From: a virus
Lineage: Duplodnaviria > Heunggongvirae > Uroviricota > Caudoviricetes
DNA: 14,113 bases
Strand: one strand, 5' to 3'
IMG/VR virus record: IMGVR_UViG_2778261687_000004
Span: 1-14,113 of that record
Part shown: positions 1,435 through 13,114 of the stretch, in pieces
How the letters are laid out: the number at the start of each line of letters is the position of its first letter
Position numbering within the stretch: position 1 is the stretch's first letter
Program-made: the position numbers and the translations under genes
The notes under the pieces: generated by a model
Seen by the model: only the letters and a program-made list of their open reading frames with translations
The model's database searches: none
Told to the model about the DNA's origin: nothing

Positions 1435-1641
1435 CTTCATTTTCACTTTTTTAAATCCAACGACAGACGGCTGGCATTTAAGTATTGTGAAATATTATCA
1501 AATGTAATCATCATTGATTTACAAAAGATACATTTTGCCCCGAAAGGATTCATGTCAGAAACATCAAAAGATGATGTTCTATACTGGGAACCATGACAAC
1601 ACGGGCATCTAAAGTGAATATGGTTTGTAATATTGTCTACC

Positions 1642-1854
1642 TCAAAGCGCCACTACATGAACAGCGGCAGGACCTTTAGGTCCGTTCTCAATACCAAATT
1701 CAACTTCCTGATTCTCAGTTAATGTTTTGAAATCGTTGCTCTGAATTGCTGAGAAATGGACAAACACATCTTTGCTGCCATCTTTCGGCGTGATGAAACC
1801 AAAACCTTTTTCAGGGTTAAACCATTTCACTAAACCAGTCATTTTGTTAGACAT
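1642..1854 (-). CDS. cspI: Cold-shock protein, CspA family (70 aa)
   Basis: [38 protein letters not shown]... contains the canonical cold-shock domain RNP motifs (KGFGFI, VFVHF). Paralog assignment is by synteny next to the lysis cassette. Confidence 0.88.
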
Positions 1855-2216
1855 AATTATTACCTTTTGAAGAAATTAGCCCTTGGGCAGAATGGTCCGA
1901 AAAAAAATATCAGAGAGAAAAACCAACAAGGAAATCTCAAGAGGTACAAATAATAAAATTATAACAATGACTGCTTCAGATAAATTTGTAACAAACCAGA
2001 ACACCATTAACGCATGATTAACCACCCATAGCAAGGATTACTTTTGTAAAGAAAAACACAGCAATGAAAGAATAGCTTTATTTATTAATAAAACGTGTCA
2101 TTCTGATTAAGACCTTTTATCTTACCCTTAAGATTTCAGGAATTTTGGCTCATGGAAGAGTCCTTTTTATTTAAATTTTACATTCCGCGATGTAAATGTT
2201 CCGATTTAATATTACC

Positions 2217-3243: not shown

Positions 3244-3551
3244 AGATATTTATGATGAGGACGCTCGTGCTTATTGGCAGGATTTTCAATCTTAAAGGAG
3301 TACTGATGCTGCAGATAAGACTCAACTTTTTCTGACAATTTTTCTGCTACTTCCAGGAAGACTTGCCGGACGCTCCTTCTGGCTGCTGCCTCATAAAACT
3401 CCAGCGCAGCTCCTTCAACACGGTCCATGGCGACATCCAGGTCAAAAATTTCACCGTCAAAGCGTTCTTTGTCCTGTAAGGCTACAGTTACCGTAACTTT
3501 ATTCTCAAAATTACGGACTCCTTTCACAACCAGTTCATAGTCTTGAGTCAT
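3240..3551 (-). CDS. ydfR: DUF1327-family prophage protein (YdfR-like), translationally coupled to the endolysin
   Basis: 103-aa ORF with RBS GAGAGGAG upstream of ATG 3551; its stop overlaps the endolysin start (ATGA 3240-3243). Confidence 0.75.
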
Positions 3552-3555
3552 TGGA

Positions 3556-3771
3556 TTACTCTCCTCTCGCAGCCTTACGCCTGTCTTCTTTAATCTTGAA
3601 ATAAAGATTTGTCAGATACGTCAGCAGGCCAAAAACCAGGCTACCCAGCACACCGATTGCAGCCCACTGTGACGGAGTTACTTTATCGAGTAACTGCAAT
3701 GCCCAGAAACCAGCATTACCCGCCGATGTGCCATAGGCAACACCTGTTGTTAACTTATCCATTGATTTCAT
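3556..3771 (-). CDS. essQ: Class II holin / pinholin (S21-like, 71 aa) with dual-start motif MKSM
   Basis: [71 protein letters not shown] has two TM segments and a charged C-terminus. The longer track ORF (to 3846) has a non-holin-like N-terminal extension. Confidence 0.8.
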
Positions 3772-4243: not shown

Positions 4244-4524
4244 GAGATTGTGGTGCTTTTTGTGGGAGTCATCCACTTACGCACTTTGTTTTGCCATGCC
4301 AGCAGTTAGCTTCTGCTGTAAAACTATTCATGCAGCAAACCTGCACTTCACCACAATGGTTAGCATACTTTTCCTGATTAAGATTTTGCCAAATATGCTA
4401 GCCATTGTTTCATGTATTGGACCTCCTTACTTTTTATTAAAGAGATCCAATATTCACTACTCTGTCCGTATCTCTACTCAGGCATCAGCCTTCTTCGTTA
4501 TCGTATACAGACGAGCGATGAATT

Positions 4525-4740
4525 TTAATCAGTAATGATGACATTTGCTGCTGCAGGACCTTTAGCACCACTCTCTATAGAGAAGGTAACCTTTTGACCT
4601 TCAAATAAGGTTCGATAATTATCATTCTGAATCGCAGAAAAATGCACAAACACATCTTTACTACCATCAACAGGAGAAATAAAGCCGAAACCTTTATCAG
4701 CGTTAAACCATTTTACTAAACCAGTCATTTTATTTGACAT
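4525..4740 (-). CDS. cspB: Cold-shock protein, CspA family (71 aa)
   Basis: [67 protein letters not shown]...; RBS AAGGAA; long 5' leader. Confidence 0.88.
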
Positions 4741-4757
4741 TCTACATTCCTTAACTT

Positions 4758-4769
4758 GAGCCTTTCGGC
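4758..4769 (-). promoter_or_regulatory. csp 5'-UTR 'upstream box'-like element (GCCGAAAGGCTC) just 5' of the cspB SD
   Basis: Minus strand reads ATGCCGAAAGGCTCAAGTTAAGGAATGTAGA-ATG. This is one mismatch from the cspA-family upstream-box consensus GCCGAAAGGCACA as I recall it. Confidence 0.5.
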
Positions 4770-5040
4770 ATAAATGGTTTGCATAACAGAAACGACTTCG
4801 TACTTAATTGGAGAGACTCAAAGAAGGAATAAGTGAATAACACCTGAAATGAGAACTGCTTTAGTAAACTACTTCGTATATCGTCTGTTCTTCAAACCGA
4901 CGCAATCATTAACGCATAGTTGAACATATGAAGCAATGTTTATTTTAGACATCCAGCCATCTTCAACCCCATCAAAAAACTATAGCTTTCTTCAGGAACG
5001 TGTGTATAGTGCGCCAAGTTATCAGTATTAAGGAATTTTT

Positions 5041-5253
5041 TTGTCCCGTAAAATGACAGGAATTGTCAAAACCTTTGACGGCAAAAGCGGCAAGGGTCTT
5101 ATCACCCCATCCGATGGTCGTATCGATGTCCAGCTTCATGTTTCAGCGCTCAATCTCCGCGATGCAGAAGAAATTACCACCGGATTACGCGTGGAATTTT
5201 GCCGGATAAATGGTCTGCGTGGCCCTTCAGCTGCCAATGTTTACCTTTCATGA
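5041..5253 (+). CDS. cspF: Cold-shock-domain protein of the CspF/CspH subgroup (70 aa), apparent TTG start
   Basis: [70 protein letters not shown]; SD AAGGAA 6 nt upstream of TTG 5041; next ATG is codon 5 (5053). Divergent from cspB. Confidence 0.8.
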
Positions 5254-5307
5254 GCTATATTAAAGCTTTAATTTCAGGCCCCATCGGATCACACATGGAG
5301 AGTTTTT

Positions 5308-5397
5308 ATGAATAACCCCGTCTGTCTTGATGACTGGTTGATTGGCTTTAAAAGCTTATGCTGTACTTTGGCCGTAATAGCTCTGCTAATAATATAA
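5308..5397 (+). CDS. Candidate 29-aa hydrophobic small protein downstream of cspF
   Basis: ATG 5308 preceded by GGAGAG 5 nt upstream; [29 protein letters not shown], with a C-terminal hydrophobic segment. Below the ORF-track length cutoff. Confidence 0.35.
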
Positions 5398-5548
5398 TAA
5401 GCAGACTCATTGTGTTTAGGGACATTGTACTGGAAGAAAACATTTTAAACATCAGGCAAATAACCAAGTCACCAGCTAAATAATAAGTTAACAGACATGA
5501 GTCCCGGGATGAGATTCAACATTACCATTGCCCCATTTAAAGCACAAA

Positions 5549-5569
5549 ACCCGCTCATCAGCGGGTTTT
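5549..5569. terminator. Bidirectional intrinsic terminator between cspF-side (+) and quuQ (-) transcription
   Basis: AAAA-ACCCGCT-CATC-AGCGGGT-TTT: 7-bp GC-rich stem, 4-nt loop, A-tract before and T-tract after. Confidence 0.6.
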
Positions 5570-5674
5570 CTACTTTTTCTTAACGTCGGGTATACAAAGC
5601 CCATCGTTGAAAAAATTTTATCCATATTTTTTGAAAAATGCAAACATCATGTCGCCATCTTCAGCAAAAATCAT

Positions 5675-6427
5675 TTATCTCGTCACCTTCCTCAATTGCG
5701 CTTCCGCGTATGCTTCTTCCTGCCAGCACTTTGTTACCAGTTTACCAATGACGTCCGCATACCCCTTATACCACTGATAATCGGTCAGGTCTGGTACCAG
5801 CTTCTGGACATGACGTCGTGCCAACGTGGTCGGTAAACGACTAAACCGGTTTCCATTACAACGCCCACAAATCTTATATACCGGTACGCCATGAAACCGG
5901 GTTCTTTTTTCATCCAGAACAATCCCTTTACCCTTACACCCTCTGCACGCTGTGCTGGCTTCGCCCTTACCATGGCAATGCTGACATAGTTCCTTCACCC
6001 ATTATTCCTTGATTACAGATTCCCCGCGTCTGTAGTGTTTCACCACTTCGCGCAATACATTATAAAATCCCGTACCTGAACAATGCTCACAGCGAGCCTT
6101 ACTTGCCGCAGACCTGGAGTAATCAGCAAAGGCAAAACTCACGAGGTAAGGAATAATCTGTAACCGGATTTCTTCACTCAATTTGTTCAATGTCGGGTTA
6201 TCCAGTGCCATCGCGTAATTTAGCAGGCCTTCAATCGCAAACTGAGGGTCCTGAACACCAACTTTTGCCAGAAATAAGGCCAACCCAAGTGGTGCTTTCG
6301 ACTGCACCATCCCCTGCGCTGCCATTACATCCGTAATTGTTAAACAACCGGTGCCTGTCGCTGGAGCGTCATCGCTCAATTTTGGAGATTTTGGGGAGTA
6401 ATATTTTGGTAAGGCTTCAAGGTTCAT
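5675..6427 (-). pseudogene. quuQ: Lambdoid late-gene antiterminator Q homolog interrupted by an in-frame TAA (plus 6002-6004)
   Basis: Track ORFs 6002..6457 (N-terminal part) and 5675..5998 (C-terminal part with zinc-finger CxxC...CxxC: CQHCHGKGEASTACRGCKGKG...CGRCNG) are in the same frame, separated only by TAA-TGG. ATG 6427 has RBS GGAGAA; counting the stop as a codon gives 250 codons. Confidence 0.75.
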
Positions 6428-9885: not shown

Positions 9886-9973
9886 GAAAAATCCCCCAGA
9901 GAATTGTCTGGGGACATTTTAGAATGGTTCAAAGGGGACATTACAGCTTGGTGTTAACAATAGCCTGCTTCTC

Positions 9974-9989
9974 CGTGCCTTTCGGCACG
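9974..9989 (-). other. GNRA-tetraloop hairpin (CGTGCC-GAAA-GGCACG) resembling a csp 'upstream box', followed by SD-like GGAGAAG, with no nearby start codon
   Basis: Minus strand reads ACGTGCCGAAAGGCACGGAGAAGCAGGC; GCCGAAAGGCAC matches the cspA-family upstream-box consensus as I recall it. Confidence 0.4.
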
Positions 9990-10219
9990 TAAGAGGCTAA
10001 CCTACATGTGTCTAGCATGAAATTGGCCTCAGATTAATGTTAAGCGTCTTGCAGGACGCGTAATGTTAACTGGGGCTTTTCTCTATCTGCCGTTGGTGTC
10101 CATGCCCGAGGCAGATAGCCTCAAGCACCCGCAGTCATTCTACTTAACTAAGATTTCCCCGCAAACCGTTTTTGTCCAGCACAGTAAATATCCAACTAAA
10201 CCAATGGAGTTCGCTGTAT

Positions 10220-13061: not shown

Positions 13062-13114
13062 TTTCTGGTGACGTTTGGCGGTATCAGTTTTACTCCGTGA
13101 CTGCTCTGCCGCCC
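13062..13114 (+). ncRNA. dicF: DicF small regulatory RNA (about 53 nt; ftsZ-targeting), processed from the dicB operon transcript
   Basis: TTTCTGGTGACGTTTGGCGGTATCAGTTTTACTCCGTGACTGCTCTGCCGCCC followed by TTTTT (13115-13119), between ydfC and dicB; recognised from memory of the DicF sequence; preceded by a GC-rich structured region. Confidence 0.8.

Follow-up and report, generated by a model that had tools for sequence, protein, structure and literature searches.

The window analysed here, a stretch of 14,113 nucleotides, is the Qin cryptic prophage of Escherichia coli K-12. Positions 5030 to 5600 are 100% identical to the corresponding DNA of E. coli K-12 MG1655, and comparison of the ynfS region with E. 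coli genomes gave identities of 99.9-100%. The locus of interest carries cspF on the plus strand (5041-5253) and, 54 nt further on, the gene ynfS, which encodes a peptide of 29 amino acids (5308-5397 including the stop codon, plus strand) and is followed by a hairpin terminator at 5546-5569. On the other side of cspF, and divergent from it, lies cspB (4525-4740) on the minus strand, which is the strand of the late transcript; this gene belongs to the same conserved cassette. The gene ydfT/quuQ, encoding a Q-type antiterminator (5675-6427, minus strand; NC_000913 1642489-1643241), is convergent with cspF and ynfS. Among known RNA families, Rfam placed a cspA thermoregulator (RF01766) over the cspB leader at 4509-4901 on the minus strand. 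Further matches above the gathering score were a cspA thermoregulator on the cspI leader (1615-2000, minus strand), the sok antitoxin RNA at hokD (9959-10130, minus strand) and DicF (13063-13114, plus strand). These Rfam matches are expected features of the Qin prophage.

Identity and translation of ynfS

The short reading frame downstream of cspF is almost certainly a real, translated and already known gene. Direct reading of the sequence gives the Shine-Dalgarno element GGAGAG at 5297-5302, the spacer TTTTT at 5303-5307, the start codon ATG at 5308-5310 and the stop codon TAA at 5395-5397, in agreement with the sequence-only reading, which had described GGAGAG, a spacer of 5 nt, an ATG and a frame of 29 amino acids. 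Short reading frames are common in themselves, and 29 of at least 20 amino acids overlap the 1.3 kb around ynfS. The combination of a strong Shine-Dalgarno element, an ATG, a frame of 20-50 amino acids and a 13-residue segment with a mean Kyte-Doolittle hydropathy of at least 2.9 occurs once in the window and 0.005 times per composition-matched random window, and this combination is therefore above chance.

In the MG1655 reference sequence (NC_000913.3, 1642122-1642211) the frame is annotated as ynfS (b4750, YP_009518791.1), flanked by cspF and ydfT. The same peptide has the UniProt entry YNFS_ECOLI, and in other assemblies PGAP names it WP_120795389.1, 'hypothetical protein'. It matches the Pfam family PF23697 ('YnfS') with 80.9 bits against a cutoff of 27, and the match covers residues 1-29 of 29. 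The DNA, the protein and the neighbouring genes (cspF upstream, ydfT/quuQ convergent) are identical to those of YnfS in E. coli K-12, with no difference. Since the K-12 reference annotation, UniProt and Pfam have all listed ynfS from the time of the 2018 small-protein screens onwards, the earlier description of the frame as unannotated was wrong, and the gene is not a discovery. The remainder of that description is supported, in that a genuine Shine-Dalgarno-driven gene for a small hydrophobic peptide lies 3' of cspF in the prophage, between cspF and the terminator. A true gene of 29 amino acids can be recovered from reading of the sequence alone.

Translation of ynfS, for which ribosome profiling or epitope tagging had been proposed as a check, has been demonstrated in the literature by both methods. 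Chromosomal SPA tagging followed by immunoblotting detected YnfS as one of 36 small proteins (VanOrsdel et al. 2018, PMC6001520), and the ynfS entry in Table 1 of that paper agrees exactly with the window in sequence and in flanking genes. Expressed from its own chromosomal locus, the protein was visible in growing cultures, and the paper adds that Nakahigashi et al. 2016 had also found ynfS in their ribosome-profiling screen with tetracycline. In the work of Weaver et al. (bioRxiv 10.1101/511675), retapamulin and Onc112 profiling each gave 'strong start peaks' for YnfS, and the tagged protein was detected once more. A tiling-array study assigned the ynfS transcript to a fluoride-repressed cluster (PMC10100675).

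YnfS remains a member of the E. coli 'y-ome', a 2024 survey counted ynfS as an uncharacterised gene of Qin (PMC11551758), and the literature searched contained no functional study of the protein. To the published record we add protein-level selection across Escherichia and Citrobacter, the motif LxDWLxGxKSxCxT, a near-obligate linkage to cspF and the head-to-head arrangement of the unit with a lambda-like pR'/tR' leader. The selection, motif, linkage and pR'/tR' context lead to concrete mutagenesis and regulation experiments.

Terminator and pR'-like late promoter at the presumed cspF-ynfS unit

A terminator scan found no terminator-like site between cspF and ynfS, and the two genes probably form an operon in which ynfS would be co-transcribed as the second cistron. 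Because the unit opposes phage late transcription, its expression in the lysogen would depend on a promoter of its own, and the antisense direction of late transcription suggests that cspF-ynfS would be a lysogen-phase unit. Ribosomes would start at the exposed GGAGAG-N5-ATG and produce the 29-residue peptide, and the transcript would end at the hairpin at 5546-5569.

This hairpin, of 10 pairs, reads AAAACCCGCT-CATC-AGCGGGTTTT on the plus strand and is flanked by A and T runs. The terminator scan scored it on the plus strand only; when the minus strand is read, the hairpin is then followed by TTTTGTGCTTT. It is likely to be bidirectional, acting as the terminator of cspF-ynfS on the plus strand and, presumably, as the tR' of the late leader on the minus strand. 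The second role is suggested by a pR'-like late promoter at 5600-5643 on the minus strand, which comprises TTGCAT (5643-5638), 17 nt, TAAAAT (5620-5615), 6 nt and AACGATGGG (5608-5600). Lambda pR' has the form TTGACT-17-TAAATT-6-AACGATGGG and shares both this layout and AACGATGGG with the Qin promoter. In lambda pR', the hexamer AACGAT is the sigma70-dependent pause element, at which RNA polymerase is engaged by the Q protein. On the minus strand, the end of ydfT/quuQ (5675) and TTGCAT are separated by 31 nt, and the hairpin falls approximately 40-65 nt into the late leader, at the place of tR'. Because the pR'-like promoter is located just upstream on the minus strand, the shared hairpin is likely the tR' of a late leader of about 65 nt. 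It follows from this pR'/tR' layout that Q-antiterminated transcription would first cross ynfS and cspF in the antisense direction and only then arrive at cspB and the lysis genes.

Two other assignments were considered from the position of the gene and rejected. A leader peptide or attenuator uORF does not fit, as ynfS is the last frame before the terminator, the next gene is convergent and there is no significant structure. Nor is ynfS a candidate for a phage lysis protein, as essQ, ydfR, rrrQ and rzpQ/rzoQ, the lysis genes, occupy the minus strand about 1.2 kb away and ynfS is on the plus strand, antisense to late transcription.

Distribution of ynfS and selection on its peptide

A tblastn search identified YnfS at 93-100% identity in the Escherichia phages PhiR42_1, HannyBb, PhiR63_1 and 2H10. 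In all four the module has the same form, with cspB divergent from cspF-ynfS and the whole placed between the Q gene and the holin gene. Annotation of the phage records at this spot is inconsistent: only PhiR42_1 of the four has ynfS called, the PhiR63_1 record calls an overlapping frame of 41 amino acids (locus 3551-3676), HannyBb calls a frame on the opposite strand (locus 3541-3645) and 2H10 calls nothing. The overlapping 41-residue frame, found in the window at 5358-5483 on the plus strand, was rejected as a candidate gene, being 15 amino acids long in C. braakii and C. pasteurii and absent among the frames of Citrobacter sp. FP75.

Two samples of the locus were assembled. The first used a degenerate DNA pattern for DDWLIGFK and returned 125 places, nearly all in IMG/VR viral contigs; all of these places are ynfS alleles of 29 amino acids with the same stop. 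The second, unbiased sample consisted of viral contigs retrieved through the cspF 3' end alone, independently of ynfS, and contained 142 assessable contigs. An intact frame of 29 amino acids lies 54-65 nt past the cspF stop in 140 of the 142, one of which has its ATG start changed to ATA, and the other two carry a frameshift of 1 nt. In these two IMG/VR contigs the frameshift is a T insertion in GGCTTT(T)AAAAGC that leads to a stop at codon 15. The peptide is exactly 29 amino acids long in every intact copy. Frame conservation in homologous prophages, which had been proposed as a tblastn check on the gene, is thus evident in the phages, the viral contigs and, as described below, Citrobacter.

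Among complete E. coli genomes, the locus is present in about 26% (1406/5426), and a further set has a partial match only. In E. coli A23 (NZ_CP028752.1; locus 1299-1601) a deletion begins in the 3' end of cspF and stops just short of the terminator; the last cspF codons, all of ynfS and most of the 3' UTR are lost, and cspF is joined to the terminator region. The cspF gene of this strain is annotated as a pseudogene. Other E. coli loci with partial matches have the same match pattern as A23, the one such locus that was read, which points to a recurrent deletion allele. Since deletion, frameshift and ATA-start alleles exist, ynfS is dispensable. Paralogues were sought with an HMM search of six-frame translations, which returned none from the cspH-type loci or from the rest of the window; in K-12, no ynfS-like frame lies downstream of cspH, the cspF paralogue.

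Homologues of YnfS are also found in Citrobacter. In three Citrobacter genomes, with one genome scanned per species, the relative of CspF is followed by a homologue of 29 amino acids with 52-59% identity: MYQKIYLNDWLTGLKSSCCTLIVTLLVFI in C. braakii, MYPKIYLNDWLTGLKSSCCTLIATILLFI in C. pasteurii and MNQTVYLSDWLTGLKSLCSTIAMTILLFI in Citrobacter sp. FP75. A fourth homologue, MYPKIYLNDWLTGLKSSCCTLIVTTLSVI, occurs in C. meridianamericanus on the minus strand (locus approximately 1400-1520) behind the Shine-Dalgarno element GGGAGAG. In this species ynfS is intact and the upstream cspF is truncated, its N-terminal half having been lost, so that ynfS has here outlived cspF. Citrobacter homologues match PF23697 with 32.3 and 37.2 bits. 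The (G)GGAGAG element is kept before the Citrobacter homologues, and the remaining intergenic spacer diverges.

Alignment of the E. coli and Citrobacter nucleotide sequences shows conservation in cspF, its loss in the spacer, its return at the Shine-Dalgarno element and the reading frame, and its loss again past the stop codon. By the Nei-Gojobori method, the E. coli and Citrobacter ynfS genes differ with pN of 0.21-0.30 and pS of 0.57-0.97. Where dS is unsaturated, as in the comparisons with three Citrobacter, dN/dS is approximately 0.15-0.32, and Fisher tests gave p values from 0.002 down to 2e-8. The ynfS frame is the only frame, on either strand, that is open in all lineages. Because of this dN/dS, the sole open frame and a conservation bounded by the Shine-Dalgarno element and the stop codon, these comparisons indicate that the peptide sequence of YnfS is under purifying selection between the genera. 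Within E. coli-type alleles there are 7 nonsynonymous and 1 synonymous polymorphisms, a ratio indistinguishable from neutral; this within-species dN/dS is based on too few changes, and the first sample was biased by its search pattern.

Properties of the peptide and possible roles

Invariance was counted over five representative sequences of divergent E. coli and Citrobacter lineages, and ten positions are invariant among them (L7, D9, W10, L11, G13, K15, S16, C18, T20 and L26), two of which are substituted in rare variants. The conserved N-proximal motif is LxDWLxGxKSxCxT, running from L7 to T20, and positions 21-29 are variable yet always hydrophobic. The best 13-residue window has a mean Kyte-Doolittle hydropathy of 3.14, and the uninterrupted hydrophobic run is 13 residues only. 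The segment W10-I29 has a mean hydropathy of 2.29 over its 20 residues and includes the invariant K15; by this composition it could span the bilayer only with K15 near the interface. A conserved helix face serving as an interaction surface was considered and rejected, as on a helical wheel the invariant positions show no clustering (resultant 0.02, p = 0.99), which leaves no obvious interface for helix packing. Invariant residues alternate at 7/9/11/13/15 and then at 16/18/20, a period of two that suggests an extended segment and not a helix, and that may be a coincidence with five lineages. YnfS had no match in NCBIfam, PADLOC or the PDB, and a single non-significant one in PHROGs (E = 0.12).

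In the mechanism that we favor, the hydrophobic C-terminal part of YnfS (approximately residues 17-29, or W10-I29 for a full span) would anchor the peptide in the inner membrane, and the LxDWLxGxKSxCxT segment would be the likely functional surface, binding another membrane protein. We regard the chances for and against a membrane-anchored, partner-binding YnfS as evenly balanced, and the full explanation, in which the identity of ynfS is blended with this mechanism, as reasonably probable. Points against it are the shortness of the strictly hydrophobic run, the burial of K15 that a full span would require, the scatter of invariant residues around the helix, the neutral-looking polymorphism within E. 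coli and the dispensability of the gene. Examples of small inner-membrane regulators are AcrZ, MgtS, MgrB and the PmrR and CydX classes. YnfS is similar to this group in having fewer than 50 amino acids and one hydrophobic segment, in its detection by SPA tagging and in lacking an enzymatic domain. It differs in that it has no sequence similarity to them, is prophage-borne and dispensable, and has conserved residues that do not lie on one face. Partner binding would be the default expectation because most of the characterised small membrane proteins of E. coli act in this way, and Weaver et al. likewise treat action through a larger membrane protein as the default for small membrane proteins (10.1101/511675). 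A role as a membrane regulator, one of two that the sequence-only reading had raised, appears plausible.

The comparison between genera bears directly on two explanations in which the peptide itself has no role. Translation of the frame could act only in cis, for example by protecting the 3' region of cspF against Rho or RNases, or could be tolerated noise in a decaying prophage, and the peptide would then be functionless. The neutral-looking 7:1 polymorphism within E. coli, the deletion, frameshift or start mutation of ynfS in some strains and its listing as uncharacterised (PMC11551758) are consistent with this explanation. We nevertheless consider it unlikely, since the dN/dS between genera reflects constraint on the amino acid sequence, ten residues are invariant over the five sequences, all intact copies have the same length, and C. 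meridianamericanus keeps an intact ynfS with a truncated cspF. Alternatively, the signal could be an RNA feature, either a structured 3' UTR or an sRNA derived from the 3' UTR of cspF, with the frame being incidental. The frame is located in a stretch of 290 nt from cspF to a strong terminator, and 3'-UTR sRNAs typically arise from such regions. However, folding is no better than that of shuffled sequences (z = -0.05 and -0.81), Rfam has no match at ynfS, and conservation between genera is limited to the Shine-Dalgarno element and the frame, follows codon positions and does not extend to the 3' UTR past the stop codon, which makes this explanation highly improbable.

The other suggestion of the sequence-only reading was a toxin. 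YnfS would then be a type I-like membrane toxin, such as Hok, Ldr, TisB or Ibs, that depolarises the inner membrane and is held in check by an antisense RNA. The likeness to the type I systems (Hok/Sok, Ldr/Rdl, TisB/IstR and Ibs/Sib) is one of size and hydrophobicity, the peptide being short with a hydrophobic C-terminus, and the same prophage also contains hokD/sok and relBE. Weak promoter-like hexamers are present in the antisense direction at the 3' end of ynfS, with TAAACA-16/18-TATATT/TATTAT between 5418 and 5389 on the minus strand. These hexamers match at 9 of 12 positions in AT-rich DNA, the 6 sites found are within chance of the 3.3 +/- 1.9 expected, and the sequence after the stop codon that holds the antisense -35 is not conserved in Citrobacter; they are probably due to chance. 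No antitoxin or sRNA family of Rfam was matched on or opposite ynfS, and the region of the Shine-Dalgarno element does not fold unusually (5254-5420, z = -0.05 against shuffles). YnfS thus differs from the type I toxins in having neither a match to a cognate antisense RNA nor a translation-blocked mRNA. Unlike tightly repressed toxins of this type, it is readily translated, with strong initiation peaks, and its tagged form builds up during normal growth in LB. Moreover, ynfS appears to be the second cistron of an operon and not a stand-alone toxin mRNA, and the literature searched contained no report of growth arrest or killing on overexpression of YnfS. With no match to an antitoxin RNA, no conserved antisense promoter, a ribosome binding site that is not unusually structured and a protein detectable at native levels, the suggestion of a toxin finds no support, and we consider it quite improbable.

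The membrane-anchored, partner-binding reading of YnfS can be placed in the context of the cassette in which the gene resides. The same cspB/cspF-ynfS cassette is found beside different Q alleles in Citrobacter prophages, and C. braakii ATCC 51113 (locus 1391-2870) carries ynfU-, cspB-, cspF- and ynfS-like genes with no adjacent Q gene. Because it occurs with different Q alleles and, in C. braakii, without Q, the group ynfU-cspB-cspF-ynfS may be viewed as a 'moron', a mobile accessory cassette that Qin-type lambdoid prophages carry between Q and the holin gene. It resembles other Q-to-S morons, such as stx in the Stx phages, in occupying the slot between Q/pR' and the lysis genes and in having its own Shine-Dalgarno element and terminator; in contrast to stx, cspF-ynfS points against late transcription. 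For a specific role, we compared ynfS with HK97 gp15 and with DicB of Qin, which are small exclusion proteins expressed in lysogens; DicB is reported to confer phage protection via inner-membrane proteins (PMC6832061). PADLOC gave no match for YnfS, and an exclusion phenotype has not been reported. YnfS, alone or with CspF, might by this comparison be a membrane effector that is expressed in the lysogen and alters a host inner-membrane protein, for example by blocking DNA entry of superinfecting phages, and that is turned off in the lytic cycle by antisense Q read-through, a proposal that we regard as speculative and rather unlikely. If it were true, the spread of the cassette across prophages with different Q alleles, and the fact that C. 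braakii has kept it, would reflect a benefit to the host or the prophage. The C. braakii cassette is flanked by a frame for an ArsH-like reductase and by a frame of 545 amino acids, and may be a domesticated remnant of a prophage module.
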